Source: an uncultured Polaribacter sp. (GTDB lineage: Bacteria; Bacteroidota; Bacteroidia; Flavobacteriales; Flavobacteriaceae). From it: a DNA stretch of 64,000 nucleotides. Position 1 is the first letter of the stretch; each line of letters opens with the position of its first letter. The DNA is taken from positions 2,616 through 66,615 of the forward strand of contig NZ_CANMHM010000012.1 of assembly GCF_947497695.1 (NCBI RefSeq). Reading direction: 5' to 3'. Below, one piece after another: positions 15,881-44,248 of this stretch. The notes beneath the pieces were generated by a model. It made no database searches. It worked only from the letters and a program-made list of their open reading frames with translations, and was not told where the DNA came from. The position numbers were made by a program, and so were the translations under genes.

Positions 15881-18676
15881 ATGCTTAGAAAATTTCCTTT
15901 CGTATTTCTACTGTTTATTTCTTTTGCAAGTATTGCACAAGAGTTGCCTCCTATTAATTCCTATACAGCTAAAGATTATAAAGCAGAAAATCAAAATTGG
16001 GCGATATCTCAATCAAAAAACAAGTTTATTTATGTAGCTAATAATAAGGGTTTATTAGAGTTTAATGGAGCAAATTGGCAATTGTATTCAACGCCTAATA
16101 AAACCATAATGAGATCTGTAAAAGTATTAAAAGATAAAGTTTATACAGGTTTTTATATGGATTTTGGGTTTTGGAAAAAAAATGAATTCTCAGAATTAGA
16201 ATTTACATCTATTGTTGAAAAACAAAATATTAAAATGTTAGATGATGAGCAAATATGGGAAATCATAGAGCTTGATGGTTGGATGTTATTTAAATCTTTG
16301 CAGAGAATTTATCTTTATAATTTAAAAACAAACGAGGTAAAGATTATTAATTCAGAATTTAAAATTCATAAATTATCAAAAGTAAAAGATGTTATTTATT
16401 TTCAAGAAGCAAATAAAGGAATCTTTAAAATAGAAAATGGTTTCCCTAAGTTAATTTCTGATGATAAAATATTAAAAGAAAATATTATTGTTGAAATTTT
16501 TAAAAAAGAGGATAGGTTATTGTTTCTAACTCAAAAATCTGGTTTTTTTAATTTAGTAGAAAATAAACTTGTAAAATGGAAAATTCCTTCAGATACAATT
16601 TTAAAAAAATTAACGGTTTACAGTGCCAAACAATTAAAAAATAATGATTTTGCATTAGGCACTATTTCAGATGGTTTTATATATTTAAATAGTAATGGAG
16701 AGATAAATTATCAGATTACGCAAAGTTCTGGTCTTAATAATAACACATTACTTTCTGTTTTTGAAGATATTGATAATAATATTTGGTTAGGTTTAGATAA
16801 TGGTATTAATTCAATTAATAATAGCTCTCCGTTTAAAATATATAATCATAAAAACGATTTTATTGGTACAGTTTATGCTTCAATAGTTCATGAAAATAAT
16901 TTGTATTTAGGTACAAATCAAGGTCTTTTTTTTAGAAAAAAAGATTCTAAAGCCCCTTTTAAATTGATAAAAAATACACAAGGTCAGGTTTGGAGTCTAG
17001 CTGTATTTGATGGAGCATTATTTTGTGGACATGATTCTGGTACTTTTATAATAAAGAATAATTTAGCTAATTTAATTTTTAATAAACAAGGTACTTGGAA
17101 ATTTCAAAAAATAGACGAAAATAAAATTATTCAAGGTTGTTATGATGGGCTTTACATTCTACAAAAAAAGAATAATAATTGGGGGTTAAGAAATAAGATA
17201 GCTGGTTTTAATACATCTAGTAAATACTTTGAAAAATATAATTCACACAAATTTTTAGTAAACCATGAATATAAAGGAGTTTTTAAGCTTACGTTAGATA
17301 AAGATTTTAAGAAAGTATTAAGTAAAGAAATTGAAGAATCACTTGATAAAGGCCTACATTCTTGTTTGATCTCTTACCAAGATAAAATTTTATATTCAAG
17401 TAAAGCAGGTGTTTTTTTATATGATAAAAATAAGGATGTCTTTAAAAAAGATATTATTTATAGCCAATTAATCTCTGAAGATGATTTTATCTCTGCTAAA
17501 TTAGCATTTAATAAATCTAACAATGTGCTTTGGTCTTTCTCTAAAGAAAGTATTAAATGTTTAATTCCAGGAAAGTTAACTACGAAACCTATTGTAAAAA
17601 GCTTGCCAATTTCAGCTTTTATGCCAAAAGCTACTTATGGATATGAAAATATTATTCATTTAGAAAATGAGAAATATTTAATAGGTACTTCTAATGGTTA
17701 TATAACTGTAGATTTAAATAAAATAGATAAAGATCTTAAATTTACAATACAAATAAATGAAATTAATAACTTTATTATAGATGGTCCAAAGGTAAAAGTA
17801 AATCTATTATCACAGAATAATTTTTTATTCAAAGAAAATAATTTAGAATTTTATTACAGTGTACCTAATTATAGTAAAATAACAAGCATAAAATACCAAC
17901 ACCTTTTGTTGGGGCAAAGTAAGCAGTGGAGTGTTCCATCAGTAACTAAATCTGTCTTATTTGAAAATATACCTTATGGCGATTACACGTTTAAAGTTAG
18001 AGCTCTTGTTGATGGTAAAATAAGTAGTAAAGAAGCTACTTATAGTTTTACAATTCAAAGGCCTTGGTATCTTTCTAATTTACTAATTACAATCTATGTG
18101 TTATTATTTTTAATATCATTTTATTTAGTTCATGTTGCATCAAAACGATATTATAGAAAGCAAAGAGAAGAATTGTTAGAAAAAGCAAAAAAAGAACTAG
18201 AATTAAGAGAGCTAGAAAGTTCACAACAAATTATCAAACTGAATAATGATAAGTTAAGAAATGACATTGAAAGTAAAAATAGAGAACTGGCTACCTCTAC
18301 AATGAATATTATTAAGAAAAATGATTTTTTAAATACAATAAAAATTGAATTAATCAATGGCAAAGAGAAAAATATTTCTAAAGTTGTTAAGATTATAGAT
18401 AAAAATTTAAACAATACAGATGACTGGAAAATGTTTCAAGAGGCATTTAACAATGCTGATAAGAATTTTCTTAAAAAAGTAAAAGATAAACATTCTGGTT
18501 TAACTCCTAATGATTTAAGACTCTGTGCTTATTTAAGGCTAAATCTATCTTCAAAAGAAATTGCTCCTTTATTAAATATATCTCCTAGAAGTGTAGAGGT
18601 AAAAAGGTATCGATTAAGAAAAAAGATGGATTTACCTCATGATGCTAACTTAACAAATTACATTTTAGAAATATAA
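15881..18676 (+). CDS. Membrane-anchored one-component regulator: periplasmic beta-propeller (Reg_prop) + Y_Y_Y domain, TM helix, coiled coil, LuxR/GerE HTH
   Basis: Signal peptide, propeller repeats ('NIWLGLDNGINSIN') and Y_Y_Y ('FYYSVPNYSKITSIKYQ...YGDYTFKVRA'). Also TM 'LLITIYVLLFLISFYLVHV' and C-terminal 'LTPNDLRLCAYLRLNLSSKEIAPLLNISPRSVEVKRYRLRKKM'. No kinase or receiver motifs. Confidence 0.85.
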   Translation: MLRKFPFVFLLFISFASIAQELPPINSYTAKDYKAENQNWAISQSKNKFIYVANNKGLLEFNGANWQLYSTPNKTIMRSVKVLKDKVYTGFYMDFGFWKKNEFSELEFTSIVEKQNIKMLDDEQIWEIIELDGWMLFKSLQRIYLYNLKTNEVKIINSEFKIHKLSKVKDVIYFQEANKGIFKIENGFPKLISDDKILKENIIVEIFKKEDRLLFLTQKSGFFNLVENKLVKWKIPSDTILKKLTVYSAKQLKNNDFALGTISDGFIYLNSNGEINYQITQSSGLNNNTLLSVFEDIDNNIWLGLDNGINSINNSSPFKIYNHKNDFIGTVYASIVHENNLYLGTNQGLFFRKKDSKAPFKLIKNTQGQVWSLAVFDGALFCGHDSGTFIIKNNLANLIFNKQGTWKFQKIDENKIIQGCYDGLYILQKKNNNWGLRNKIAGFNTSSKYFEKYNSHKFLVNHEYKGVFKLTLDKDFKKVLSKEIEESLDKGLHSCLISYQDKILYSSKAGVFLYDKNKDVFKKDIIYSQLISEDDFISAKLAFNKSNNVLWSFSKESIKCLIPGKLTTKPIVKSLPISAFMPKATYGYENIIHLENEKYLIGTSNGYITVDLNKIDKDLKFTIQINEINNFIIDGPKVKVNLLSQNNFLFKENNLEFYYSVPNYSKITSIKYQHLLLGQSKQWSVPSVTKSVLFENIPYGDYTFKVRALVDGKISSKEATYSFTIQRPWYLSNLLITIYVLLFLISFYLVHVASKRYYRKQREELLEKAKKELELRELESSQQIIKLNNDKLRNDIESKNRELATSTMNIIKKNDFLNTIKIELINGKEKNISKVVKIIDKNLNNTDDWKMFQEAFNNADKNFLKKVKDKHSGLTPNDLRLCAYLRLNLSSKEIAPLLNISPRSVEVKRYRLRKKMDLPHDANLTNYILEI

Positions 18677-18695
18677 CACCCAAACAAGTTTATAT

Positions 18696-18709
18696 TTTAC
18701 CACAACATT
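18696..18709 (+). promoter_or_regulatory. Motif A 'TTTACCACAACATT' upstream of the glucan-utilization operon (second CACAACA half-site at 18712-18718)
   Basis: Identical 14-mer at 38626-38639 upstream of the T9SS CBM gene. Confidence 0.4.
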
Positions 18710-18815
18710 AACACAACAAAGTTAATTTAGTATCTTTTTGTGATAATTTTATACATGTTTGTAAAACCTTGTTTTTAGTAGAAATTTATTCCCATTTCTG
18801 TTTTTTTTAAAAATC

Positions 18816-18838
18816 TGTATGTTTTTTGTTGTGGTTAA
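18816..18838 (+). promoter_or_regulatory. Motif B 'TGTATGTTTTTTGTTGTGGTTAA', containing the reverse complement (TGTTGTGG) of the motif A core
   Basis: The first 16 nt are identical to 38763-38778. Lies 145 nt before the ATG at 18961. Confidence 0.4.
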
Positions 18839-18960
18839 TTTTATTGTTTAACTTTAAATTAAGTATAATTTTATCAAACAAATAATAGATATATATTTCT
18901 GTTAAATTTTCCTTTAAACAATTAACCAACTTTTAAAGTATTAATTAAATCAAATAAATT

Positions 18961-22131: not shown

Positions 22132-22144
22132 AAAAGATAAAGAA

Positions 22145-23557
22145 ATGAAAATTATACAATTTATAGATTCGAAAATCATATTTGTTTTAGGATTGTTTTT
22201 GATAACATTTACAAGTTGTGAAAGACATCTTTCAGACGAAGCTGAATTTGCTACACATGCAACTACTGCCGAAATTTTTATTGACGGTTTTGAAGGTGGT
22301 TTAGATTACTTTCCTTTTGGAGGTTCTTTTTTAGAAGCATTTTCAGTAGATACAGATGAAAGTTATACAGGAGAAGCTTCAATGCGTTTCGATATTCCTT
22401 CTTTTGGAGTTGGTTTTGGAGGAGCAACTTTTCCAAGCACAGCACCAAGAGATTTATCAGGATATGATGCCTTAACCTTTTGGGCGAAAGCTTCTAAAGG
22501 AGCAGATATTAATGAAATTGGTTTCGGAATTGATGGAAACGGAAGTAAATACCAAGTTACAGCAAGTAATCTTGCAATATCAACAAAATGGACAAAGTAT
22601 ATTGTACCTATACCAGACCCTAAAAAGTTAATTGAGCATATAGGTATGTTTTGGTATGCAGAAGGTGCAGAAAATGAGAATGATGAAGGAGGTTATAGTT
22701 TTTGGATTGATGATTTGCAATTTGAAAAATTAGGAACTATTGCACAACCACGTCCTGCTATTTTAAATGGAGAAGAAATTACAGAACAAGCTTTTAATGG
22801 AGGTACAGTAAATTTGGCTGATCGTGGTCTTACTCAAACATTTAATTTAGGTTCTGGTGCCAATCAAACAGTTTCTGTTGCTCCCTCATATTTTACATTT
22901 AACTCTACAGATGTTGATGTAGCAAGAGTAAGTGAGTTAGGAGTTGTATCTATAGTTGGTAATGGAACAGCAACAATAACAGCAACATTAAACGGTGTAA
23001 AAGCTCTTGGATCATTAACAATAGAAACTATTGGAAGTTTTGATTTTGCTCCAACTCCTACATTAGCTTCAAGTAGCGTGATATCAATTTTTAGTGATGC
23101 CTATACTAATATTCCTGTTGACTTTTTTAATGGTTTTTGGGAGCCTTTCCAAACTACATTATCTGCAGATTTTACTTTAAATAATAATAACATATTAGGT
23201 TATACTAATTTTAATTTTGTTGGACATCAGTTTTCAAGTCCAACTGTAGATGCTACTGAAAAATCTACTTTACATATAAATATGTACATACCAGCAGAAA
23301 TACCAGCAGATTTAGATTTTTTAATTACTATAAAAGATTTTGGTCCCGACAAAGCAGATGGTGGAGGAGATGATACAACACAACAAGTGTTTTTCTATGC
23401 AGAAGATTTTGAAGCTTACACTTGGGCAACTTTAGAAATACCAATAACAATGGTAAATAAAAATAATATTGGTCAAATTATTTATGAGAATATTAATAAC
23501 CCAACAACATCATCTATAGAGAGTTTTTATTTAGATAATATCTATTTCCATAATTAA
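22145..23557 (+). CDS. Surface glycan-binding lipoprotein candidate (CBM-like + Big_2 + 'SDAYTN' domain)
   Basis: ATG at 22145 gives lipobox 'ITFTSC|ERH'. The listed start at 22040 overlaps the upstream gene. 'YSFWIDDLQFEKLG' ends a CBM-like sandwich and 'VARVSELGVVSIVGNGTATITATLNG' is Big_2. C-terminal domain starts 'VISIFSDAYTN'. Confidence 0.65.
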   Translation: MKIIQFIDSKIIFVLGLFLITFTSCERHLSDEAEFATHATTAEIFIDGFEGGLDYFPFGGSFLEAFSVDTDESYTGEASMRFDIPSFGVGFGGATFPSTAPRDLSGYDALTFWAKASKGADINEIGFGIDGNGSKYQVTASNLAISTKWTKYIVPIPDPKKLIEHIGMFWYAEGAENENDEGGYSFWIDDLQFEKLGTIAQPRPAILNGEEITEQAFNGGTVNLADRGLTQTFNLGSGANQTVSVAPSYFTFNSTDVDVARVSELGVVSIVGNGTATITATLNGVKALGSLTIETIGSFDFAPTPTLASSSVISIFSDAYTNIPVDFFNGFWEPFQTTLSADFTLNNNNILGYTNFNFVGHQFSSPTVDATEKSTLHINMYIPAEIPADLDFLITIKDFGPDKADGGGDDTTQQVFFYAEDFEAYTWATLEIPITMVNKNNIGQIIYENINNPTTSSIESFYLDNIYFHN

Positions 23558-23568
23558 AAATAAATAAT

Positions 23569-24396
23569 ATGAATAAAATATATAAAATAAAAGTATCACT
23601 ATTTAAATCATTACTTATTGTATTCACTCTGTTTTTTGCAACAAGTTGTAATACAGATGAAGAGCAGACAGTTGCAACGTTTACTAATTTAGTAATGCAA
23701 GACGAGTTTGATACCAATGGATCTTTAGATAATACCATTTGGGATTTTAACATTGGTACAGGTACTAATGGTTGGGGTAATAATGAACTTCAATATTATA
23801 CAGACCGTTCAGAAAATGCGATTGTACAAAATGGTGTATTAATTATAACGGCAAAAAAAGAAGATTTTAATGGTGCTGGTTATACATCAGCAAGAATACT
23901 AACAAAAGGCAAATTTGAACAGAAGTATGGGCGTTTTGAAGCACGTATTAGATTGCCTTATGGTCAAGGAACTTGGCCTGCATTTTGGTTATTAGGTGCT
24001 AATATTGATGAAGTGGGTTGGCCACAATGTGGAGAAATTGATATCATGGAAAATCGTGGACAAGAACCTACCTTAATTAGTGGAACAGTTCATGGTCCTG
24101 GTTATTCTGCTGGAGAATCTATAGGGAAATCGTATGAATTATTAAACGATAGATTTGATACTGGGTTTCATGTTTTTGGAATTGAATGGGGACCTGAATA
24201 CATCAATTTTTATGTAGATGATGTATTGTATAATCAAATAACACCAGAAGATGTTACAGGAGAATGGGTTTACGATCATCCGTTTTTTATCATTTTAAAT
24301 TTAGCTATTGGAGGTGATTATGTAGGGGCGCCAAATGCCGAAACTGTTTTTCCTCAAAGGATGCTTGTAGATTACGTTAGAGTTTATCAAAAATAA
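23569..24396 (+). CDS. GH16 endo-beta-1,3-glucanase (laminarinase), lipoprotein
   Basis: Lipobox 'FFATSC|NTDEEQ'. Has the GH16 catalytic motif 'GEIDIMEN' (ExDxxE), 'WPAFWLLG' and 'NLAIGG'. Confidence 0.9.
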   Translation: MNKIYKIKVSLFKSLLIVFTLFFATSCNTDEEQTVATFTNLVMQDEFDTNGSLDNTIWDFNIGTGTNGWGNNELQYYTDRSENAIVQNGVLIITAKKEDFNGAGYTSARILTKGKFEQKYGRFEARIRLPYGQGTWPAFWLLGANIDEVGWPQCGEIDIMENRGQEPTLISGTVHGPGYSAGESIGKSYELLNDRFDTGFHVFGIEWGPEYINFYVDDVLYNQITPEDVTGEWVYDHPFFIILNLAIGGDYVGAPNAETVFPQRMLVDYVRVYQK

Positions 24397-24418
24397 ATAA
24401 AATTTAAAAATAAATATT

Positions 24419-26863
24419 ATGAAACAAATCATTCAAAAAATAAAGCAAATTTCAATATTGCTTTTAGTTTTATCTTTTTTAAGCTGTGAAAAAGAAGATG
24501 AGAAAAATTTACCTCAAATAACAGCTGGTTTTACCTATACAATTAATGTAGATACAGGTACTGTAACTTTTATAAATATTTCTGAAAGTGCTGATAGTTA
24601 TGAGTGGTCTTTTGGAGACGAGACAGAAAACTCACCAGCAACAACATCCACAGAAGTTAATCCAATACATACATTTGCAAGTGGTACTTATACAGTATTG
24701 TTAAAAGCGAAAAATGTTGCGGGAGCTTCTAATACTTTTGAGAGCATTATTACTTTCGAAATTCCAGAAGTATTTGCTTTTCCAGTAACGTTTGATAATG
24801 CAAAAGTGAGTTACACTGTAGCTACTTTTAGTGGTACTACTTTTAAGATAGTAGATAATCCTGCATTAGGAGGTACAAATAATGTTGCCTCTAAAGTAGG
24901 TGAAATTGTAAATAGTGGAGCAGCTTTTGAAGGGATAGCTTTAGAATTAGGAACAGATTTAGATTTAACAACAAACAAATCAATAAAAGTTAATGTTTGG
25001 TCAGATAAAGCTGTTGATGTTTTATTAAAATTAGAAATATCAGAAAGTGATGCCGTTGAAACAGCAGTAAATCACACTGGTTCTGGATGGGAAGAATTAA
25101 CATTTAGTTTTAGTTCATCAAAATCATATCCTAAAGTTGTTGTTTTTATTGATGGACCTGGAGCTACTACAGGAACCTTTTATATTGATGATTTAGTTCA
25201 AGTTGCATCAGAAGAATCTCCTGCTCCTTTATGTGAAGCAGAAACAATGCAGTCTTTAAATGCGGTAGATTTTAATTTAACTTTTATGGCAGATCCAGCG
25301 TCTAGCTTAACAATTATACAAGACAATACAACCTATGAATATATAGATAATATTGCAGCTACAGATGCTAATAACTCATGTAAAATAGGTAAGCTAACCA
25401 ATAGCAACCAAAACCCTTGGGACAATTTACAAATAGATTTAGCAAGTAAATTAACTTTTACAAATGGATCAAACTTTACAATGAAGGTGTATTCGCCTCA
25501 GTCTGGGTACAAAGTAACTATGAAGCTTGAAGATAAAAATGATAATAGTATTAAGACAGAAGTAGCTTCTTCAGCGACAACAAAAACAAACGAATGGGAA
25601 GTAATTACAGTTCCTTTTGGAGCTACTGATAGTGGAAAGTATGATAAAATTGTACTGTTTTTTGATTTAGAAACACAAAACGGAAACACGTATTATTTTG
25701 ATGATTTAAAATTAAACGCTGGTTCTGGTGGTGGAAATACTGGTGGAGGAGCTTGTACTACAGATGCTGCTCAATCTCTTAGTGCATCAAGTTTTGATTT
25801 AACTTTTTTAACAGATATTGGTACTATAGCAACAAAAGGTGCAGATGTTGGTAAGTTTTTTCAAGACAACACAACGTATGAATATGTTGATAATCCAGGA
25901 ACTTCTTCAGTAAATAATTCATGTAAAGTAGGTAAGGCTACAAACAGCAATCAAAACCCTTGGGATAATTTACAAATTGATTTAACAAACAAATTAGCAT
26001 TTACTGATGGATCAAATTTTACAATGAAAGTATACTCGCCACAATCTGGTTATAAAGTAACTTTAAAGTTAGAAGATAAAACAAACGGAGGAATTGCAAA
26101 AGAATTTCCTTCTAATGAAACAACTACTAAAATTAATGAATGGGAAGTACTAACTTTTCCTGTAAGTGCAGCTGATGCTAATATATATGATAAAATTGTA
26201 TTGTTTTTTGATTTACAAACTCAAAATGCAAACACGTATTATTTTGATGATTTAAAGTTGAACTTAGGTTCTGGTGGTGGAAATACAGGTGGTAATTCAG
26301 GTGGAAGTGGAACCTCAAGTACTCTTGGAGGGGGAACTGGATGTGATGATACAATTACATGCCCTGCTGCTCCAGTAGGTGAATTATTATTTAACGGAGA
26401 TTTTGAAGCATGTGACTGTGATTGGCAATTAATTAACAATGGAGGTTTAGTAACCATCTCAACAACAATTAGTAATGGGGGTACAAAATCTGCTCAAATT
26501 CAATCTGCAGCGGGTGTAAACCCAGCATTAAAGCAAGAAAGACTTGGTGCAGGTCTTATTCAACCAAATACTACTTATGTTGTTACTTTTGATATTAAAG
26601 CATCAGGTGAATTTGGTGAGGGTGGTTTGTTCAAGGCATTTACTTTTTCTGAAGGAGAAAATGGTGGAGACGTAGCTGCAACTCAACATGTTCTAACAGA
26701 GAATACTACTAGTATTTCATCTGCTTCTTGGGAAAGTAAATCGTATACTTTTACTACTCCAGGATCTGCAGCTCAAGTTGCAGGAGGAATATCTTTCTTA
26801 GCTGAGTTAGTAAACAGTGCCGCTTCAGTAAACATAGATAATGTAGTTATAAAAGCTCAATAA
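24419..26863 (+). CDS. PKD-domain + four CBM-like modules surface lipoprotein
   Basis: Lipobox 'LSFLSC|EKEDEK'. PKD ('TVTFINISESADSYEWSFGDE...YTVLLKAKN'). Modules end 'FYIDDLVQV', 'YYFDDLKLN' (twice) and 'IDNVVIKAQ'. Gly-rich linkers 'GSGGGNTGG'. Confidence 0.7.
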   Translation: MKQIIQKIKQISILLLVLSFLSCEKEDEKNLPQITAGFTYTINVDTGTVTFINISESADSYEWSFGDETENSPATTSTEVNPIHTFASGTYTVLLKAKNVAGASNTFESIITFEIPEVFAFPVTFDNAKVSYTVATFSGTTFKIVDNPALGGTNNVASKVGEIVNSGAAFEGIALELGTDLDLTTNKSIKVNVWSDKAVDVLLKLEISESDAVETAVNHTGSGWEELTFSFSSSKSYPKVVVFIDGPGATTGTFYIDDLVQVASEESPAPLCEAETMQSLNAVDFNLTFMADPASSLTIIQDNTTYEYIDNIAATDANNSCKIGKLTNSNQNPWDNLQIDLASKLTFTNGSNFTMKVYSPQSGYKVTMKLEDKNDNSIKTEVASSATTKTNEWEVITVPFGATDSGKYDKIVLFFDLETQNGNTYYFDDLKLNAGSGGGNTGGGACTTDAAQSLSASSFDLTFLTDIGTIATKGADVGKFFQDNTTYEYVDNPGTSSVNNSCKVGKATNSNQNPWDNLQIDLTNKLAFTDGSNFTMKVYSPQSGYKVTLKLEDKTNGGIAKEFPSNETTTKINEWEVLTFPVSAADANIYDKIVLFFDLQTQNANTYYFDDLKLNLGSGGGNTGGNSGGSGTSSTLGGGTGCDDTITCPAAPVGELLFNGDFEACDCDWQLINNGGLVTISTTISNGGTKSAQIQSAAGVNPALKQERLGAGLIQPNTTYVVTFDIKASGEFGEGGLFKAFTFSEGENGGDVAATQHVLTENTTSISSASWESKSYTFTTPGSAAQVAGGISFLAELVNSAASVNIDNVVIKAQ
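25232..26290 (+). repeat. Diverged tandem duplication of a roughly 522-bp CBM-like module (25232-25753 and 25754 to about 26290)
   Basis: Both copies start at a Cys codon and share 'QDNTTYEY(I/V)DN', 'NSNQNPWDNLQIDL', 'GSNFTMKVYSPQSGYKVT', 'YDKIVLFFDL' and 'TYYFDDLKLN', followed by 'GSGGGNTGG'. Confidence 0.9.
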
Positions 26864-26888: not shown

Positions 26889-26922
26889 CAGCTTGAGTAA
26901 TCATTAATTCATACTCAAGCTG
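26889..26922 (+). terminator. Hairpin splitting the glucan locus into two transcription units
   Basis: 11-bp perfect stem: cagcttgagta (26889-26899) pairs with tactcaagctg (26912-26922), followed by 'cttattat'. Confidence 0.55.
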
Positions 26923-33429: not shown

Positions 33430-33499
33430 CAGCCAAAAAATCAAATAAATCTAAAGGTTTTAAAACCTATTAGATGTAATTAACTAAAAAATAAAATTT

Positions 33500-35091: not shown

Positions 35092-35127
35092 GCGAGTTTT
35101 CTATCAATAGAAAGTTCGCTTTTTTAT
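35092..35127 (+). terminator. Terminator downstream of the symporter gene
   Basis: 'gcgagttttcta tcaa tagaaagttcgc' (12 bp including 2 G-U pairs), followed by 'ttttttatt'. Confidence 0.6.
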
Positions 35128-35230
35128 TCAATAATTTTTTAGTTGCAACTAAAAATGTATCCTAATAATTAAAGGATTGTACTAAAAACAGCAAATATTT
35201 TTTATATTTACTTTTAATACCAACACAATT

Positions 35231-38200
35231 ATGAAAACTAAATTACTTTATTTTAACGTACTATTATTTGTTGTTTTTTTTATAATTTCTTGTCAAAATA
35301 CAAAACGTAATTTATACCCAGAAACACTTGTTGGAGGCTTAGAATTATTATCCTCAGAAAAAACAGGAATTGATTTTAACAATAGCATAAAAGAAACAGC
35401 ATATTTTAACCATTATTTTTATGCTCAAATATATGTAGGTTCTGGAGTTGCAATTGGCGATTTAGATAATGATGGTTTGCCAGATATTTTCTTTGGTGGG
35501 AGCCAAGTTGGAGATAGATTGTACCATAACAAAGGTGGTTTTAAATTTGAAGATATTTCTAAATCGTCTAAAATAGTAAGAAGTCCAGGTTGGACTTGGG
35601 GTGTTACAATGGCAGATATTAATGCCGATGGGTATTTAGATATTTATGTAAGTAGAAATGGAAATTCTTTAGATATTGATAAAAGAAGAAATTTACTCTT
35701 TATAAATAATCAAGATTTAACTTTTACAGAGTCTGCAGCCTCTTATGGATTGGCAGATATAGGTTTTTCTACACAAGCTGTATTTTTTGATATGGATAAT
35801 GATGGAGATTTAGACATGTATCAAGTAAATCAACCAGCAGACAATAAAATACTACTCGTAAATAAAGTAACTCCTAAAGATGTTGAATCTTTTAAAGATA
35901 AAATTTATAGAAATGATGCTGGGAAATTTACAGATATTTCTAAAAGCACAGGTATATCTAGAGAGTTAGCTTATGGTTTAAGCGTAAACGCAACAGATTT
36001 TAATAATGATGGATTTGTAGATTTATATGTCTCCAATGATTATGCCGCTCCAGATTTTATGTATTATAATAACGGAGACGGAACTTTTAAAAATGTAATA
36101 CAAGATAAACTAAAACATTTTTCACAATATAGTATGGGTTCTGACACAGGAGATGTAAATAATGATGGTTTAATTGATCTTTTTACAACAGACATGACTC
36201 CAAATGATCATTACAGATCTAAAATGAATATGGCTACAATGAGTAGTGATGCTTTTAATGAAATCGTAAAAACAACAAATAGTTATCAATATATGACCAA
36301 TACATTACAGATAAACAATGGTGTAGGTATGTTTTCTGATATTGCAAATTTAGCAGGAATTTCTAATACAGATTGGAGTTGGGCAAGTCTTTTGTTTGAT
36401 GTTGATAATGATGGATTTAAAGATTTAATAGTTACCAATGGTATAAAAAAAGATATTGATAACAATGATGCCAAAAGAGATGTTAGTGCAAATTCTAAAA
36501 ATATTACTTATGATGAATTATTTAAATATAGTAAAAAAACTCCATCAAACCCTTTAAGTAATTATGTTTTTAAAAATAGTAAAGGTTTTGATTTTATAAA
36601 TAAAAGTGAAGACTGGGGCTTTAATACTCCAAGTTTTTCACATGGAATTGCTTATGGTGATTTAGATAATGATGGCGATTTAGATGTTGTTATCAATAAT
36701 ATGGAAAAACCTGCATTTGTATATGAGAATAAAGCTACAGGAAATTTTTTAAAAATAAAATTAGAAGGATCAGATAAAAATCAATTTGGTTATGGTGCCA
36801 AAGCTATTATTAATCATAATGGTAATTTGCAAATTGCAGAGAATAATGTAACACGTGGTTTTTTATCCTCTGTAGAGTCAGGCTTATTTTTTGGATTAGG
36901 AAAAGATACTAAAATAGAAAAAGTATCAGTTATTTGGCCAGATGGTAAAACTAGTTTTTTTAATAATATTTCAGCAAATCAAACACTTACCGCTAAATAT
37001 TCTAACGCAAAGTTAAAGGGTAAAGAAAATAAAGAAAACAGTACTTTATTATCACAAATAGATGCTAAAAAAATAGGGCTTACTTATACTCACAAAGAAA
37101 ACGAGTTTAATGATTTTGCTGATGAAATTCTTTTGCCTCACAAATTATCAACAAACGGACCTTTTTCTTCAGTTGCAGATGTAAATGGTGATGGTTTAGA
37201 AGATATATTTATTGGTGGTGCAGCAAAACAAGCAGGTATTTTGTATATACAAAACAACGATGGAAAATTTAAAGAAAGTCAATTTCAACCCTGGAGTATT
37301 GATAAAGATTCAGAAGATTTAGGGGCATTATTTTTTGATGTTGATGGTGATCATGATCAAGATTTATATGTTACAAGTGGAGGTAGCGAATTTAAAACAG
37401 GAAACCCCTTATTAAAAGACAGGTTATATATTAATGATGGTAAAGGTGTTTTTACAAAAAATTCAAAAGCAATTCCTAATATTTATGAAAGTTCACAATG
37501 TGTTAAAGCTTCAGATATTGATGCTGATGGAGATTTAGATTTATTTGTTGGTACAAGACTTATATCAGGTAAATATCCTTTTCCTGCTACAAGTTATTTT
37601 TTAATAAATGAAAATGGAACATTTAAAAAAGCAAAAGAAAGTATTGCTAAAGAGTTTCAAAATTTAGGAATGGTTACAGATGCTGTTTTTAGTGATATTG
37701 ATAAAGATGGTGATGATGATTTATTAATAGTAGGAGAGTGGATGAAAATAAAAGTGTTTAAAAATGATAAAGGAATATTTAAAGATGATTCTGTAAATAT
37801 TGGTATCACTGATCAATTTAGAAGTTTATGGTGGTCAATTACTGCCAATGATATAGATAATGATGGAGATGAAGATTATATAGTTGGTAATTTAGGTAGA
37901 AATAATAAATTTAAAGCATCAAAAGAACATCCTTTTAAGGTATATGCTAATGACTTTGACAATAATGGTACAAATGATATTGTTTTAGCTAAATATTACA
38001 AAGATAATTATGTACCTATGAGAGGAAGAGAATGCACAAGCCAGCAAATGCCCTATGTTTCAGAAAAATTTAAAGATTACCATAGTTTTGCATCTTCAAA
38101 ATTATTAGATATTCTTCCAGAAGATAAAATTGAAGGAGCTGTCATTTATCAGATAGAAAATTTTGAAAGTATTATTTTAATCAATGAAAACGGAAAACTT

Positions 38201-38527
38201 ATCTCTAAAGACTTACCTATACAAGCACAAGTGAGTCCAATTAAAAGTGTTATTGTAGATGATTTTAATTCAGATGGTTTTAAAGACATTTTAACAATTG
38301 GTAATCATTATGGGGTAGAAGTAGAAACAACACGTTATGATGCAGGTTATGGATCACTTTTTTTAGGAGATGGTAAAAATAACTTTCACTTTATACCTGC
38401 ATTAGAAAGTGGTCTTCATGTTCCAAAAGATACTCGTTCTATTCAGCAAATAAAAATAGCTAAAGAAAATGCATTTTTGATGACCAATAATAACGATTCT
38501 TTATTTCTATTTAAAAGAAATTTTTGA
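35231..38527 (+). CDS. FG-GAP/VCBS-repeat protein with ASPIC/UnbV domain (CRTAC1-like), lipoprotein
   Basis: Lipobox 'FIISC|QN'. Many 'D(L/I/M)DNDG(x)xD(I/L/M)' repeats. Central 'GAKAIINHNGNLQIAENNVTRGFLSSVESGLFFGLGK...VIWPDGK' is UnbV_ASPIC-like. Confidence 0.8.
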   Translation: MKTKLLYFNVLLFVVFFIISCQNTKRNLYPETLVGGLELLSSEKTGIDFNNSIKETAYFNHYFYAQIYVGSGVAIGDLDNDGLPDIFFGGSQVGDRLYHNKGGFKFEDISKSSKIVRSPGWTWGVTMADINADGYLDIYVSRNGNSLDIDKRRNLLFINNQDLTFTESAASYGLADIGFSTQAVFFDMDNDGDLDMYQVNQPADNKILLVNKVTPKDVESFKDKIYRNDAGKFTDISKSTGISRELAYGLSVNATDFNNDGFVDLYVSNDYAAPDFMYYNNGDGTFKNVIQDKLKHFSQYSMGSDTGDVNNDGLIDLFTTDMTPNDHYRSKMNMATMSSDAFNEIVKTTNSYQYMTNTLQINNGVGMFSDIANLAGISNTDWSWASLLFDVDNDGFKDLIVTNGIKKDIDNNDAKRDVSANSKNITYDELFKYSKKTPSNPLSNYVFKNSKGFDFINKSEDWGFNTPSFSHGIAYGDLDNDGDLDVVINNMEKPAFVYENKATGNFLKIKLEGSDKNQFGYGAKAIINHNGNLQIAENNVTRGFLSSVESGLFFGLGKDTKIEKVSVIWPDGKTSFFNNISANQTLTAKYSNAKLKGKENKENSTLLSQIDAKKIGLTYTHKENEFNDFADEILLPHKLSTNGPFSSVADVNGDGLEDIFIGGAAKQAGILYIQNNDGKFKESQFQPWSIDKDSEDLGALFFDVDGDHDQDLYVTSGGSEFKTGNPLLKDRLYINDGKGVFTKNSKAIPNIYESSQCVKASDIDADGDLDLFVGTRLISGKYPFPATSYFLINENGTFKKAKESIAKEFQNLGMVTDAVFSDIDKDGDDDLLIVGEWMKIKVFKNDKGIFKDDSVNIGITDQFRSLWWSITANDIDNDGDEDYIVGNLGRNNKFKASKEHPFKVYANDFDNNGTNDIVLAKYYKDNYVPMRGRECTSQQMPYVSEKFKDYHSFASSKLLDILPEDKIEGAVIYQIENFESIILINENGKLISKDLPIQAQVSPIKSVIVDDFNSDGFKDILTIGNHYGVEVETTRYDAGYGSLFLGDGKNNFHFIPALESGLHVPKDTRSIQQIKIAKENAFLMTNNNDSLFLFKRNF

Positions 38528-38625
38528 TGTTTATGTAATTTAAGGTCAATTAATTGCACGTATTTTAATTCAACTTTTGTTAACAAAACAAAAATACTAC
38601 AATACCAAATTTCTATTTGTGTAAA

Positions 38626-38639
38626 TTTACCACAACATT
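38626..38639 (+). promoter_or_regulatory. Motif A 'TTTACCACAACATT', second copy
   Basis: Exact 14/14 match to 18696-18709. Lies in the 372-bp intergenic region upstream of 38900. Confidence 0.4.
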
Positions 38640-38762
38640 TCCCATACATTTATTTTTATTTTTATTTTAATAGTAAATATTTATCAAGATTACAATTACG
38701 AATTCCTTATAAAACCTAATGATTTTTGATAATTTATCAATAAATGTATTTATTTATTATAA

Positions 38763-38785
38763 TGTATGTTTTTTGTTGGGGCAAT
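38763..38785 (+). promoter_or_regulatory. Motif B 'TGTATGTTTTTTGTTGGGGCAAT', second copy
   Basis: 16/16 match to 18816-18831. Lies 137 nt before the ATG at 38900. An intervening 'TTTTGATAATTTAT' also resembles 'TTGTGATAATTTTAT' at about 18738. Confidence 0.4.
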
Positions 38786-38899
38786 TTATTCTAATTTAAT
38801 TATTTAATTTTCTAGCTTAGCTAAAGCTCAAGTAAATACTTTATAAGTATATTGAAAAAGTATTTAAAACATTAATTATTAACCCATTTAATATTTATT

Positions 38900-41218
38900 A
38901 TGAAAAAAATTACATTATTTATTTTTCTATTGACAATGTCAATAGGGTATGCACAACAAACTTTAGTGCAAGATTTTGAAACAGGTACAGATGGACTTGG
39001 AGAACCATTTGGAGGTGCAGCAGCAGAAATTGTAGCAGATCCAGCTGTTGGAGGAACTAGAGGTCAGGTTGCAAAACTAACAGCTTCAGCATCAGGAGAA
39101 GTATGGCAAGGGTTAAATGTTAACATGACAAGTAATGTTACTTTAACTACCGATAAAACCATGGAAATAGACATTTATTCTAATGAAGCTATTACAATTG
39201 CACCAAGAGTTCAAGGAGGATTAGATGGAGCTCCAGTATCAACAGCTGTAGTTTCTCACACAGGTAGTGGATGGGAGACTTTAACCATAACGTTTAATAC
39301 AGGTTCAAATAATGATCAGACTGCAAATGGGGTTTATTCAGAATTTGTTATTTATTATCTATGGGATAATGGCTTTATAAGTCCTGCAATTGATAGAGTT
39401 TTTTATGCAGATAATATTAAAGGGATTGTAGTTGAGGACGAAGTAGTGGTTGTTGAGCCTGAAGATAAAGATTTAGTACAAGATTTTGAAACTGGTACAG
39501 ATGGACTTGGAGAACCATTTGGAGGTGCAGCAGCAGAAATTGTTGCAGATCCAGCTGTTGGAGGAACTAGAGGTCAGGTTGCAAAACTAACAGCTTCAGC
39601 ATCAGGAGAAGTATGGCAAGGATTAAATGTTAACATGACAAGTAATGTTACTTTAACTACCGATAAAACCATGGAAATAGACATTTATTCTAATGAAGCT
39701 ATAACAATTGCTCCAAGAGTTCAAGGAGGATTAGATGGAGCTCCAGTATCAACAGCTGTAGTTTCTCACACAGGTAGTGGATGGGAGACTTTAACCATAA
39801 CGTTTAATACAGGTTCAAATAATGATCAGACTGCAAATGGAGTTTATTCAGAATTTGTTATCTATTACCTTTGGGATAACGGTTTTATAGACCCTGCAAT
39901 TGAAAGAGTTTTTTATGCCGATAATATTAAAGGGATCGTAGTTGAGGATGAAGTAGTGGTTGTTGAGCCTGAAGATAAAGATTTAGTACAAGATTTTGAA
40001 ACAGGTACAGATGGTCTTGGAGAACCATTTGGAGGTGCAGCAGCAGAAATTGTTGCAGATCCAGCTGTTGGAGGAACTAGAGGTCAGGTTGCAAAACTAA
40101 CAGCTTCAGCAACAGGAGAAGTTTGGCAAGGGTTAAATGTTAACATGACAAGTAATGTTACTTTAACTACAGATAAAACCATGGAAATAGACATCTATTC
40201 TAATGAAGCTATAACAATTGCTCCAAGAGTTCAAGGAGGATTAGATGGAGCTCCAGTATCAACTGCTGTAGTTTCTCACACAGGTAGTGGTTGGGAGACT
40301 TTAACCATAACGTTTAATACAGGTTCAAATAATGATCAGACTGCAAATGGGGTTTATTCAGAATTTGTTATTTATTATCTATGGGATAATGGCTTTATAA
40401 GTCCTGCAATTGATAGAGTTTTTTATGCAGATAATATAAAAGGAATTGCAGTTGCAGCTCCAGTAGTCAATACGCCAACAATAGCAGCTCCAACTCCACC
40501 AAATAGAAATGCAGAAGATGTGATATCTATTTATAGTGATGCCTATACAAATGTTGCAAATAATTTTGATGCAGGTTGGTGTGGTCCAAGTTCCGTTGAA
40601 ATAATTCAAGTAGAAGGTAATAATACCGTTGAATATAAGGGAAATGCTTGTCAAGGAATTGTTTTAGATGCAGCTATGGATGCTACTGCTTTTACTAATT
40701 TACATGTAGATGTTTATATTGACGCTACTGTAGATGTAACTTCAAAAGTGTTTAATTTAAAATTTGTAGGTGTACCAAATACAATTTTTAAAGAATATCC
40801 TTTTAATGCCGGTACAACACCAGCTTTAGTAGCGGGTTCTTGGGTAAGTATAGATATTCCTGTAGATTTATCTACAATGTCTAACTTTAAAGAATTTGGT
40901 ATCACAGCTGATAACCTTACAAATCAAGTTTGGTATGATAATTTATACATTTACAAAGGTGCTCCTTTAAGTATAGATAAAAACAATTTATTAAATATAA
41001 GTGTATCACCAAACCCTGCTAGAAATGATTTAAAAATTTCTACTCAAGGTACGATTGATAATGTAACTATTTACAATGTATTGGGTAAGAAACTAGTAAG
41101 TAAAATAATTGGTAGTAGTGAAGGTGTCATAAATGTTTCTAACTTAAAAACGGGTATTTATATTTTAAAATATACTGTAAATTCTAAAGTAGGAACTATG
41201 AAGTTTGTAAAAGAGTAA
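38900..41218 (+). CDS. T9SS-secreted protein: 3 near-identical CBM-like modules + 'SDAYTN' domain + Por C-terminal sorting domain
   Basis: SPI signal ('IGYAQ|QT'). Has a 170-aa module repeated 3 times and 'VISIYSDAYTN...WYDNLYIYKG'. C-terminus 'ISVSPNPARNDLKIS...GIYILKYTVNSKVGTMKFVKE' is a T9SS CTD. Confidence 0.8.
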   Translation: MKKITLFIFLLTMSIGYAQQTLVQDFETGTDGLGEPFGGAAAEIVADPAVGGTRGQVAKLTASASGEVWQGLNVNMTSNVTLTTDKTMEIDIYSNEAITIAPRVQGGLDGAPVSTAVVSHTGSGWETLTITFNTGSNNDQTANGVYSEFVIYYLWDNGFISPAIDRVFYADNIKGIVVEDEVVVVEPEDKDLVQDFETGTDGLGEPFGGAAAEIVADPAVGGTRGQVAKLTASASGEVWQGLNVNMTSNVTLTTDKTMEIDIYSNEAITIAPRVQGGLDGAPVSTAVVSHTGSGWETLTITFNTGSNNDQTANGVYSEFVIYYLWDNGFIDPAIERVFYADNIKGIVVEDEVVVVEPEDKDLVQDFETGTDGLGEPFGGAAAEIVADPAVGGTRGQVAKLTASATGEVWQGLNVNMTSNVTLTTDKTMEIDIYSNEAITIAPRVQGGLDGAPVSTAVVSHTGSGWETLTITFNTGSNNDQTANGVYSEFVIYYLWDNGFISPAIDRVFYADNIKGIAVAAPVVNTPTIAAPTPPNRNAEDVISIYSDAYTNVANNFDAGWCGPSSVEIIQVEGNNTVEYKGNACQGIVLDAAMDATAFTNLHVDVYIDATVDVTSKVFNLKFVGVPNTIFKEYPFNAGTTPALVAGSWVSIDIPVDLSTMSNFKEFGITADNLTNQVWYDNLYIYKGAPLSIDKNNLLNISVSPNPARNDLKISTQGTIDNVTIYNVLGKKLVSKIIGSSEGVINVSNLKTGIYILKYTVNSKVGTMKFVKE
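38962..40445 (+). repeat. Tandem 510-bp repeat, 3 copies (38962-39471, 39472-39981, 39982 to about 40445), near-identical
   Basis: 'ttagt(g/a)caagattttgaaac' recurs at 38962, 39472 and 39982. Units align base for base with only scattered substitutions. Confidence 0.95.
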
Positions 41219-41241
41219 TTTAATAATTTTATAATTCTGAT

Positions 41242-41276
41242 AAAAAGGATGCTGAAAAGCATCCTTTTTCTTTTTA
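41242..41276 (+). terminator. Rho-independent terminator after the T9SS CBM gene
   Basis: 'aaaaaggatgc tgaaaa gcatccttttt cttttt'. Confidence 0.8.
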
Positions 41277-41446
41277 TAATTTTAAGTTAGTTAATAATAT
41301 TATTTGTTATATTTTAATAATATTTTCTAAGTTTTTATAGTCACTTTTTTTTGTGTTTACATTCAAAAAAAACTAAATAAAATTATTTTTCTTCATTTGT
41401 AATAAATGACGTAAATTGCTAGCATCATACTTTTTTAAGTTTAAAC

Positions 41447-44248
41447 ATGCTAAGAAATTTATTTTTATTAATTTCTCTATCAGTTTCTGTACTAAATTTT
41501 GCACAGGAACTGCCTCCAATTAGCACCTATACTTCTCAGGATTATAAAGCAGATAATCAAAACTGGTCAATAGCACAATCTGAAAATAATTTTATTTATG
41601 CATCCAATAATAAAGGTTTATTAGAATTTAATGGATTTGATTGGAAATTGTATCCAACGCCTAATGGAAGTGCCAGTAATGTTGTAAGGGTTTTAAAAGA
41701 TAAAATTTATACAGGTTTTAAAAATGATTTTGGTTTCTGGGATAAAAATGATTTTGGCGAATTATTCTATACTTCTATTGTTAAAAGTCAAAATATTAAA
41801 ATCTTGGCAGGTGAAGAAATAGAAACTATTTTAACACTTAATGATTGGATACTTTTTAAATCTTCACAAAATATTTACTTGTTTAACTTAAAAACTTCGG
41901 AAGTAAAAGTTATCAATACAGCCAATAAAATTCAGAAAATATCGAAAGTAAATGGTGTTATTTACTTCCAAGAAGAAAATAAAGGTATTTTTAAAATTGA
42001 AAAAGGTGTTCCAAAACTGTTTGCAGAACATCAAATATTACAAGAAAATGTTCTTGTAGAGATTTTTAATAAAGACGATACACTTTTATTTTTAACTCAA
42101 AATAATGGCTTTTTCTATTTAGAGAATAAAAGGTTAAAAAAATGGAAAATAGCTTCAGAAGCTATTCTTAAAAATGTAACAGTTACTACTGCAAAAAATT
42201 TAGCAAACAAAGATTTTGCTTTGGGTACAGTTTCTGATGGTTTTCTGTATCTAAATAAAAATGGAGATTTTAAGTATCAAATCACAAAAAGCTCAGGTTT
42301 AAATAGCAATACTTTACATAGCATTTTTGAAGATGCTAATAACAATATTTGGTTGAGTTTAAATAATGGAATCAATTGTATTAACAATACTTCTCCTTTT
42401 AAAATTTTTAATAGAAAAACTGATTTTATAGGTTCAATTTACTCATCCATTGTTTTTAAAGACAATTTATATTTAGGAACTAATCAAGGATTGTTTTACA
42501 GAGAAGCAACTTCTAAAGAAAGTTTTACTTTTATAGAAAACACAGAAGGCACTGTTTTAAGTTTAGAAAATATTGATGGTACATTATTTTGTGGTCATAC
42601 TTCTGGGACACTTGTAGTAAAAAATAACAAAGCAAGTTTTGTTTTTAAAGAACAAGGTACTTTAATGCTCAAAAAGGTAGCTAAAAACCTCATTCTTCAA
42701 GGAGGTTATGATGGGTTACATCTTCTTGAAAAAAATAATAATACTTGGCGTTTTAGAAATAAGGTTACTGGTTTTGATAACTCAATTAAATCTTTTGTAA
42801 TTTCTGATTCTCATAAAATTATCGTAAACCTAGAGTATAAGGGGGTTTTTAAGCTTACGCTAGATGATGATTATCAGAATGTAATTGATATTCAAAAAGA
42901 AAAATCTCTTGCTAAAAGCCTTCATTCTTGCTTACTTTCTTATCAAGATAAAATAATATTCTCTAGCAAAGATGGAGTTTTTATTTATGATAAAAATAAA
43001 GATGTTTTTAAGAGAGACGCTATTTTTAGCCAATTAATCTCTGAAAATGGTTTTATTTCAGCAGAACTTATACCTACCAATTCTAATAAACTTTGGTCTT
43101 TTTCTAAAGAAAGTATCAAATATTTAACACAAGGGGAGTTGAGTAGTAAACCTGTTGTTAAAAGTATTCCAATTTCAGCTTCGATGCCAAAAGCTACTTA
43201 TGGTTATGAAAATATCGTGTATTTAGAAAATCAAAATTATTTGATAGGAACATCTAATGGTTATGTTGCTGTAGATTTAAATAAATATAATGACCAAAAT
43301 AACTATAAGATTCAAATTTATAAAGTAAATAATTTTGATTTAGCTACTTCAAAATTACAAGTTGACTTATCAGAAAAAAAAGACTTTTCTAGTAAAGATA
43401 ATAATTTTGAATTCTTTTATGGAGTTCCTAATTATGATAAAACAACCAGTATAAAATACCAATATTTTATTAATGGTTTAAATGAAAACTGGAGTAACCC
43501 TTCAACAGCAAAATCTTTTTTGTTAGAAGAAATTCCTTATGGTAATTATACCTTTAAAGTAAGAGCTCTTGTTGATGGACAAGTGAAGAGTAATGAAGCA
43601 AGTTTTAATTTTGTAATTACTAAACCTTGGTATTTGTCTAATGGTTTATTACTAATTTTTGGATTGTTTTTAGCAGTATTTGTACTTACTTTTTATATTG
43701 TTAACAAAAAATCAAATCAACATTTTAAAAAGCAACAAGAGGCATTGTTAGCCAAAGCTAAAAAAGAGTCTGAGCTAAGAGAGTTTGAAAATAAGCAAAA
43801 AGTTATAAAGCTAAAAAAAGAAAAATTAGAGTACGTTACAGAAACCAAAACGAGAGAATTAGCCACTTCTGCAAAGAATATTATTAAGAAAAACGACTTT
43901 TTAAATAAGATAAAAGCTGAATTGATAAATGGAGACCCTAAAAATGTTTCTAAGGTTATTGATATTATTGACAAAAACTTAAACAATACTGAAGATTGGG
44001 AAATGTTTCAAGAAGCGTTTAACAATGCCGATAAGAATTTTATTAAGAAAGTGAAAGTGAAGCAGCCAACCTTAACGCCAAATGATATTAGACTTTGTGT
44101 GTATTTAAGGTTGAATTTATCTTCTAAAGAAATTGCTCCTTTGCTTAATATTTCATCTAGAAGTGTTGAAGTAAAAAGATACAGACTAAGAAAAAAAATG
44201 CAATTATCTCACGATGCTAATTTGAGAAAATATATTTTGGAGATTTAA
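41447..44248 (+). CDS. Paralogous membrane-anchored propeller/Y_Y_Y/LuxR regulator
   Basis: Collinear with 15881-18676 over the full length, with the same signal peptide, propeller, Y_Y_Y ('FFYGVPNYDKTTSIKYQ...YGNYTFKVRA') and TM. Near-identical HTH 'LTPNDIRLCVYLRLNLSSKEIAPLLNISSRSVEVKRYRLRKKM'. Confidence 0.85.
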   Translation: MLRNLFLLISLSVSVLNFAQELPPISTYTSQDYKADNQNWSIAQSENNFIYASNNKGLLEFNGFDWKLYPTPNGSASNVVRVLKDKIYTGFKNDFGFWDKNDFGELFYTSIVKSQNIKILAGEEIETILTLNDWILFKSSQNIYLFNLKTSEVKVINTANKIQKISKVNGVIYFQEENKGIFKIEKGVPKLFAEHQILQENVLVEIFNKDDTLLFLTQNNGFFYLENKRLKKWKIASEAILKNVTVTTAKNLANKDFALGTVSDGFLYLNKNGDFKYQITKSSGLNSNTLHSIFEDANNNIWLSLNNGINCINNTSPFKIFNRKTDFIGSIYSSIVFKDNLYLGTNQGLFYREATSKESFTFIENTEGTVLSLENIDGTLFCGHTSGTLVVKNNKASFVFKEQGTLMLKKVAKNLILQGGYDGLHLLEKNNNTWRFRNKVTGFDNSIKSFVISDSHKIIVNLEYKGVFKLTLDDDYQNVIDIQKEKSLAKSLHSCLLSYQDKIIFSSKDGVFIYDKNKDVFKRDAIFSQLISENGFISAELIPTNSNKLWSFSKESIKYLTQGELSSKPVVKSIPISASMPKATYGYENIVYLENQNYLIGTSNGYVAVDLNKYNDQNNYKIQIYKVNNFDLATSKLQVDLSEKKDFSSKDNNFEFFYGVPNYDKTTSIKYQYFINGLNENWSNPSTAKSFLLEEIPYGNYTFKVRALVDGQVKSNEASFNFVITKPWYLSNGLLLIFGLFLAVFVLTFYIVNKKSNQHFKKQQEALLAKAKKESELREFENKQKVIKLKKEKLEYVTETKTRELATSAKNIIKKNDFLNKIKAELINGDPKNVSKVIDIIDKNLNNTEDWEMFQEAFNNADKNFIKKVKVKQPTLTPNDIRLCVYLRLNLSSKEIAPLLNISSRSVEVKRYRLRKKMQLSHDANLRKYILEI

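Follow-up and report, generated by a model that had tools for sequence, protein, structure and literature searches.

A probable laminarin locus of Polaribacter without its own SusC/SusD pair, headed by a predicted fusion of a glucanase-like enzyme and a beta-barrel

Canonical polysaccharide utilization loci (PULs) of Bacteroidota are defined by a SusC/SusD pair. Laminarin is among the largest organic-carbon fluxes in the sea, and its uptake by bacteria is now modelled, and tracked in metaproteomes, via SusC/SusD. Here we analyse a 64 kb stretch of low-GC (~29%), flavobacterial DNA from an uncultured Polaribacter sp. (the window), in which positions 15881-44248 very probably constitute a one-strand locus for beta-1,3-glucan (laminarin) that is of the BguR type and has no SusC/SusD of its own. 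The first structural gene of this locus encodes a protein, termed FUS, that joins a glycoside hydrolase (GH)-like enzyme domain to a predicted beta-barrel.

The closest described systems are the laminarin PUL 'variant B' of Polaribacter sp. Hel1_33_49 and Formosa spp. (Kappelmann 2019, PMC6298971) and the homologous PUL of Formosa agariphila. The latter is under the control of BguR, whose architecture has been described and which, as its essential activator, induces the PUL (GH16_3, GH17, GH30_1, GH149, GH158, SusC/D) 70- to 110-fold (bioRxiv 10.64898/2026.01.10.698779). Both share with the window the regulator type, the families GH16, GH17, GH30, GH149 and GH158-like, a major facilitator superfamily (MFS) transporter, surface glycan-binding proteins (SGBPs) rich in carbohydrate-binding modules (CBMs), and the gene order. 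The locus of the window differs from them in having no SusC, no SusD and no first SGBP, with FUS placed 285 bp after the regulator, and in ending with a second regulator paralog and a motif-preceded CBM gene of the type IX secretion system (T9SS).

The enzyme families, the regulator and the cassette-bearing versions of the locus are already known. Versions without the cassette have been published without comment, a Muricauda paper naming FUS a 'GH2 beta-glycosidase', and a Maribacter paper reports dispersed genes, SusC/D included. Our literature searches found no description of the enzyme-barrel fusion, of its invariant lipoprotein partner or of SusCD-independent (TonB-independent) laminarin uptake. 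The component of the locus that may be new in kind is the enzyme-fused barrel.

Gene content of the locus and the search for SusC/SusD

Twelve genes, all on the plus strand and with a regulator at each end, make up the locus. A preliminary interpretation of the DNA made without database searches (the sequence-only reading) had placed every open reading frame (ORF) between the regulators on that strand; this holds for ORFs of at least 100 aa, bar a 114-aa minus-strand ORF (33940-34284) inside the transporter gene. The genes on which the argument turns are:

15881..18676, plus strand: BguR-type regulator 1, a one-component regulator that spans the membrane, with signal peptide, Reg_prop/Y_Y_Y beta-propeller sensor, one transmembrane helix and GerE helix-turn-helix
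18961..22131, plus strand: FUS, enzyme-barrel fusion of 1056 aa, with Sec signal peptide, GH158-like clan GH-A TIM barrel and predicted ~26-strand beta-barrel
22145..23557, plus strand: LP505, lipoprotein of 470 aa from ATG, with lipobox FTSC followed by acidic residues, then CBM-like, Big_2 and C-terminal CBM-like domains (weak Pfam matches to CBM_11 and Big_2)
23569..24396, plus strand: GH16 endo-beta-1,3-glucanase lipoprotein (Pfam E 2e-26; EIDIME motif)
27177..30635, plus strand: GH149 beta-1,3-glucan phosphorylase (NCBIfam equivalog, PDB)
30659..31927, plus strand: GH17 endo-beta-1,3-glucanase lipoprotein, ortholog of FbGH17A (PDB 6fcg, 585 bits)
31939..33429, plus strand: GH30 lipoprotein, GH30_1-like (Pfam E 3e-78)
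33500..34924, plus strand: MFS_2/GPH-type inner-membrane sugar symporter (Pfam E 1e-63)
41447..44248, plus strand: BguR-type regulator 2 (Reg_prop, Y_Y_Y, GerE), a paralog 63% identical to regulator 1

Hidden Markov model (HMM), PDB and six-frame searches upheld the assignment to laminarin, the enzyme set and the operon units that had been proposed from the letters. The GH16 enzyme matches crystallised laminarinases in the PDB (E 2e-77), and what had been put forward as a phosphorylase candidate is a GH149 enzyme that scores 1800 bits against an NCBIfam equivalog model with a curated cutoff of 1150, and 1611 bits against PDB 6hq6. As GH149 has no signal peptide, it is presumed to be cytoplasmic. 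By analogy with FbGH30 (PMC6246565), the GH30 enzyme is probably a debranching exo-beta-1,6-glucanase; the Formosa orthologs debranch laminarin (GH30) and trim its backbone (GH17) in the periplasm (PMC6246565). The signal sequences of the locus lipoproteins are as first read, and the topology suggested by them, with acidic residues after the lipobox cysteine denoting the surface and basic residues the periplasm, agrees with the published Formosa model. Both regulators show every element of the BguR architecture and have neither kinase (HisKA/HATPase) nor receiver domains; regulator 1 is 77% identical to the regulator of a related locus (L004).

No member of a SusC/SusD pair could be detected. 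None of the Pfam models for SusC or SusD matched the twelve locus ORFs or the 22 ORFs of 176 to 781 aa that were scanned on the flanks; the NCBIfam scan covered nine locus proteins and a distal TonB receptor. A SusC-like transporter (TIGR04056; plug and N-terminal extension) found no match in any locus ORF, and a SusD-like lipoprotein (PF07980, PF14322, PF12771) none in Pfam or NCBIfam among the scanned window ORFs, with tblastn values of E > 0.7. When three laminarin SusC and three SusD proteins were searched by tblastn against the six frames of the 64 kb, no remnant of either was recovered. The sole match for the SusC queries, at 25% identity, was to the N-terminus of a 742-aa TonB receptor at 2496-4724, which is the only one in the window, lies 14 kb from the locus and has no adjacent SusD gene. 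The sequence-only reading had likewise reported a locus without SusC/SusD and a single, distant TonB receptor with no SusD partner, and both statements stand. This receptor does not look like a glycan transporter. Its gene, on the plus strand, comes after that of a tetratricopeptide repeat (TPR) protein, and its first 111 residues match the NCBIfam model BamP with 40.5 bits, below the cutoff.

That reading had also named a way in which the pair might be disguised, with 18961-22131 as a divergent SusC and one of the lipoproteins as a divergent SusD. Both candidates were ruled out. FUS, encoded at 18961-22131, lacks a plug, starts within a glycosidase fold and has a barrel with ~26 predicted strands. 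The 505-aa lipoprotein (LP505) is built of beta-rich CBM/Ig domains, whereas SusD has an alpha-helical TPR-like fold. The locus has the co-localised and co-oriented carbohydrate-active enzymes, binding proteins and dedicated regulator of a canonical PUL.

The enzyme-barrel fusion

FUS consists of a TIM barrel (residues ~25-430, catalytic E168 and E273) followed by a beta-barrel (residues ~438-1056). Pfam yielded a weak match to the GH2_C TIM barrel over residues 73-283 and none to Plug or TonB-receptor models. The N-terminal domain finds its best match in GH158 with either approach, a Foldseek comparison of folds (E 1e-11 to 1e-9) or a profile search against the PDB (E 4e-6), at an identity of just 15-16% over ~315 aligned columns. 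The matched enzymes are BuGH158 and other GH158 endo-beta-1,3-glucanases (PDB 6pal, 9oro/9p26), which come from beta-1,3-glucan loci and whose LGNE acid/base and TEFG nucleophile motifs align with those of FUS. Its two catalytic glutamates, in the GNE and TEFG motifs, do not vary among 35 homologs, and the domain is predicted to be catalytically intact. BuGH158 is a surface lipoprotein with an Ig-like domain, and its PDB entries comprise 404-407 residues; FUS differs from it by its Sec signal and its barrel of ~620 residues.

The C-terminal 620 residues of FUS belong to no Pfam family, and a single-sequence PDB search with FUS returned noise only. For the full-length protein, AlphaFold reached only a poor pLDDT of 59 from a shallow alignment of sequences with 73-80% identity, and this model was replaced by a run on the barrel only, with the alignment widened by Myxococcota homologs. 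This gave ~26 long antiparallel strands at a mean pLDDT of 86.6 and a pTM of 0.86. Foldseek found 332 PDB matches to the barrel model at E <= 1e-3, and all 50 of those listed are outer-membrane barrels, comprising TonB-dependent transporters, porins, MtrB, LptD and AlgE (with BtuB, PfeA, MOMP and OccK among them). The C-termini of the family mostly end in an aromatic or hydrophobic residue, like the beta-signal of outer-membrane proteins. On the strength of the model, the C-terminal domain is very likely an outer-membrane barrel.

In gene size and position, FUS and LP505 resemble the SusC/SusD 'pedal-bin', with a barrel of ~1050 aa followed by a surface lipoprotein of ~470 aa at the head of a glycan locus. 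Unlike SusC, FUS is devoid of plug, TonB box and carboxypeptidase-regulatory N-terminal domain (its N-terminus aligns to the first strands of GH158); it has ~26 rather than 22 predicted strands, and it carries an N-terminal enzyme domain. Substrate-specific outer-membrane channels encoded in catabolic clusters include LamB (maltoporin), ChiP (chitoporin) and CymA. These, and the polysaccharide-conducting barrels with periplasmic domains (AlgE, PgaA, BcsC), are like FUS in that the gene of a TonB-independent barrel accompanies those of the enzymes and the inner-membrane transporter that serve a single glycan, and AlgE is among the listed Foldseek matches. FUS differs from the LamB, ChiP, CymA and AlgE types in having ~26 strands against their 14-18, in showing no sequence relation to them, and in being mostly fused to a glycoside hydrolase. 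A transporter-enzyme fusion is also known from a laminarin locus of Formosa sp. Hel1_33_131, where an MFS-GH17 protein has been proposed to couple hydrolysis to transport (Unfried 2018, PMC6246565); that protein belongs to the inner membrane, and FUS would be its outer-membrane counterpart.

The FUS family forms 508 clusters at 50% identity, mostly fusions of ~1000-1100 aa, and counts >5000 sequences in Flavobacteriaceae. We compared 80 homologous loci, one genome per species (GTDB representatives), from many Flavobacteriaceae genera. No other protein of the locus is as well conserved as FUS, whose mean identity across the 80 species is 70.6%; the enzymes reach 62-69%, and LP505 and BguR 46-49%. 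Within FUS the barrel (75.5%) is about as conserved as the enzyme domain (77.4%). A homolog of LP505 directly follows FUS in 77 of 77 loci. For LP505 itself three starts come into question: TTG 22040, which overlaps FUS by 92 nt, the gene caller's choice equivalent to 22079, and ATG 22145. Only the ATG gives a normal lipoprotein signal peptide, and ATG 22145 (MKIIQF...) is therefore the most likely start, in place of the TTG 22040 first assumed. In its C-terminal domain LP505 shares homology with domain 4 of the T9SS protein and with the cassette SGBP of Winogradskyella schleiferi.

Beyond Flavobacteriaceae, the enzyme-barrel fusion occurs in Myxococcota, where it adjoins GH16, GH1 and MFS_2 genes and where no SusC/D gene was called in the GH16 clusters that contain it. 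In two of these (L087 13224-14506; L088 13186-13839), proteins of 200-227 aa, with no Pfam match above the gathering score, come after the enzyme-barrel gene instead of the 470-aa lipoprotein, and could be a different partner of FUS. Gammaproteobacteria have a stand-alone barrel of 577-605 aa that starts with a signal peptide and ends in phenylalanine, which fits the pattern of a substrate-specific channel. Its gene has a LacI regulator and an ABC importer on one side and GH16 genes on the other, and in these clusters gene calling turned up nothing else with an outer-membrane-protein domain. Taken together, the three contexts associate the barrel, whether fused to the enzyme or not, with GH16 and an inner-membrane sugar importer across three phyla.

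Related loci and possible routes across the outer membrane

We classified the ORFs of the 80 loci by BLAST against the window proteins and SusC, SusD and SGBP seeds. A regulator stands directly before FUS in 44 loci (gaps 149-541 bp) and a SusC/SusD/SGBP cassette in 19; in the others there is too little upstream sequence (6) or the genes are arranged otherwise (11). The form without a cassette makes up more than half of this sample; complete genomes that show a regulator right before FUS include NZ_CP159833.1, NZ_CP138995.1 and OY970246.1. The source species itself lies outside the GTDB representatives, with a best match there of 78%. Its closest relatives (Polaribacter filamentus, W. schleiferi and two metagenomic contigs whose proteins are 79-80% identical to the query) have a regulator, SusC, SusD and SGBP, and then the genes of the window. 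By blastn the window is collinear with one such cassette-bearing relative, at 77-78% DNA identity on both sides of a gap in which the relative's 7.25 kb SusC-SusD-SGBP block corresponds to ~226 bp, a clean absence.

The intergenic region before FUS carries conserved elements, one of which recurs further downstream:

18699..18718, plus strand: upstream conserved element ACCACAACATTAACACAACA, inverted relative to TGTTGTGGT of the downstream motif
18816..18835, plus strand: conserved operator/promoter-like motif TGTATGTTTTTTGTTGTGGT, 145 nt upstream of the FUS start
38763..38782, plus strand: second exact copy of the TGTATGTTTTTTGTTG motif, 137 nt upstream of the T9SS gene

The motif is an exact 16-mer found twice in the window, at 18816 before FUS and at 38763 before the T9SS gene. 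Allowing up to 2 mismatches, it precedes FUS in 55 related loci and SusC in 13, and cassette-bearing loci carry it twice. The upstream element (ACAACATT..ACAACA) stands ~100 nt 5' of the motif in both kinds of promoter region (L004, L005). Because SusCD-type loci hold both copies, the FUS unit appears to be a self-standing regulated unit; the cassette, flanked by two copies of one regulatory region, is likewise a separate module, for whose loss or gain the two copies would offer a simple recombination route. We take the TGTATGTTTTTTGTTG motif to be a candidate BguR site. A conserved motif has also been published for BguR from the corresponding interval, between bguR and the first structural gene.

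The locus is closed by the second BguR paralog, and the T9SS gene just upstream of that paralog is the one preceded by the exact 16-nt copy (38763-38782).

Individual loci show further rearrangements. In P. filamentus ATCC 700397 (L001/L007, 1-1694) the BguR ortholog is split into three ORFs and apparently frameshifted, and a gene-less gap of 2.1 kb separates the SGBP gene from the enzyme-barrel gene. One locus (L085 7853-13337) has a SusC/SusD pair downstream of the PKD gene and not upstream of FUS; another (L036 9926-14226) has a short FUS-like ORF (24% identity) directly before FUS, with GH149/GH17 moved upstream.

We somewhat favour the view that this is a SusCD-independent laminarin locus, with the variant B enzymes under the control of BguR, in which the FUS barrel provides passage across the outer membrane. 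In the model that we infer, the GH16 lipoprotein, the PKD/CBM lipoprotein, LP505 and the T9SS CBM protein would bind and nick laminarin at the cell surface, the ~26-strand barrel would pass chains or oligosaccharides across the outer membrane, and the fused GH158-like domain would cut the chains at the pore. This enzyme domain would most likely be periplasmic, as the termini of even-strand barrels face the periplasm, and LP505, whose gene invariably adjoins that of FUS, would probably be its partner at the surface. Once in the periplasm, the chains would lose their beta-1,6 branches to GH30 and have their backbone shortened by GH17, after which the MFS_2 symporter would import the oligosaccharides and cytoplasmic GH149 phosphorolyse them to glucose-1-phosphate. 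The FUS unit and the T9SS gene would be transcribed from behind the conserved element that we regard as the BguR site. GH158 enzymes are reported to be processive on beta-1,3-glucans (PMC13195107), which suggests, speculatively, a hydrolysis-driven ratchet. Our belief falls somewhat short of even for the broader idea that the FUS family is a TonB-independent glycan import device, a ~26-strand channel covalently coupled to a GH158-like glucanase and served by a dedicated surface lipoprotein, in which hydrolysis at the pore, possibly processive, pulls laminarin inward.

The main rival explanation, which we consider possible though rather doubtful, makes the locus an accessory cluster: SusC/SusD encoded elsewhere in the genome (e.g. 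in a variant A GH16/GH3 laminarin PUL) would do the uptake, and the FUS barrel would only anchor a laminarinase. Many Flavobacteriia do have two or three laminarin PULs, and several observations weigh against passage through FUS. One metagenome-assembled genome, attributed to Formosa sp. Hel1_33_131, contains a FUS locus that lacks SusC/D in the 10 kb upstream and BguR in its vicinity, whereas the strain in culture possesses laminarin PULs with SusC/D and shows 'selfish' uptake of the SusCD type; the organism of the window may likewise hold SusC/D beyond the 64 kb. FUS is not simply a substitute for SusC/D, given that the pair lies immediately upstream of it in 19 of the 80 loci, where the two systems coexist; the 80 themselves are the nearest matches to the query rather than a random draw. 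Both the outer-membrane location and the transport function of FUS are predictions, the Foldseek TM-scores of its barrel to known barrels are only 0.3-0.4, so that none of these is a close relative, and the flavobacterial protein ends in ...HINIGK, not in an aromatic residue. An anchoring role, however, sits poorly with the habit of Bacteroidota surface enzymes, which are normally lipid-anchored, as are the other five lipoproteins of the locus. Anchoring alone would hardly account for a barrel of ~620 residues with 75% conservation between genera, and the barrel occurs without the enzyme in the gammaproteobacterial GH16 clusters and with it in the Myxococcota clusters that have no called SusC/D.

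A second rival explanation has the locus in decay, with the cassette recently deleted in this lineage and the remaining genes heading for loss. In its favour, the nearest relatives (77-80% identity) are all cassette-bearing, and the 7.25 kb absence falls cleanly between two copies of one promoter module. We nonetheless hold decay to be improbable, for all twelve genes have stayed intact and keep their signal peptides and catalytic motifs, the promoter motif is an exact match, and the cassette-less arrangement is stable in 44 other species. Loss of SusC/D by misassembly across the repeated motif might be suspected from a metagenomic source contig and from the repetition of the motif in cassette-bearing relatives. 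This is extremely improbable: the repeat is just ~20 nt long, 44 other genomes share the junction, and a separate 6.3 kb ENA contig independently reproduces it (regulator, 285 bp, first structural gene), showing that the missing SusC/D is not an assembly artefact.

If laminarin does pass through FUS in many Flavobacteriaceae, be it in place of SusC/D or in addition to it, PUL predictors that need a susCD pair overlook these loci, and estimates of laminarin use based on SusC/D are biased. In about half of the sampled related flavobacterial species, the laminarin locus would then encode no outer-membrane component other than FUS, in which hydrolysis and transport across the outer membrane would be coupled in a new way that needs no TonB energy. 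FUS is abundant and highly conserved, and it lends itself to genetic work in cultured strains of Flagellimonas, Winogradskyella or Formosa.

Other surface proteins, hairpins and neighbouring features

The remaining genes of the locus and the hairpins that divide it are:

24419..26863, plus strand: PKD and multi-CBM surface glycan-binding lipoprotein (Pfam PKD)
26889..26922, plus strand: hairpin after the first transcription unit, an 11-bp perfect stem with no T-run (-18.9 kcal/mol, z -5.9)
35092..35119, plus strand: intrinsic terminator after the second unit (z -3.5)
35231..38527, plus strand: FG-GAP/ASPIC-UnbV lipoprotein (Pfam), role unassigned
38900..41218, plus strand: T9SS-secreted protein with three 170-aa CBM-like repeats, one SGBP-type CBM-like domain and a Por C-terminal sorting domain
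41242..41276, plus strand: intrinsic terminator after the T9SS gene (z -5.2)

Residues 119-260 of the PKD/CBM lipoprotein match PDB 8qx6 (E 2.6e-19), and its gene contains two internal repeats that are ~80% identical (25314-26292). In the T9SS protein the three CBM repeats noted at the outset were found again, and a fourth, different CBM-like domain is to be added. The three repeats are 510 nt long and 97-98% identical in DNA (38962-40491), far above those of the PKD/CBM gene, which suggests a very recent duplication or gene conversion. Tandem Repeats Finder reported no T9SS repeats, the 510-nt period being above its limit.

The three hairpins, also predicted by the sequence-only reading, fold much better than shuffled controls, as their z values attest. 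A scan for sigma-70 promoters gave fewer matches than in shuffled sequence, with a model that does not cover Bacteroidota promoters.

Outside the locus, a Flavo-1 small RNA motif (Rfam RF01705, 72 bits), the sole Rfam match in the window, lies on the minus strand at 48173-48244, just downstream of a minus-strand topoisomerase gene. At ~60075-64000 a plus-strand ORF of >1300 codons with an N-terminal membrane anchor runs past the 3' end of the window.

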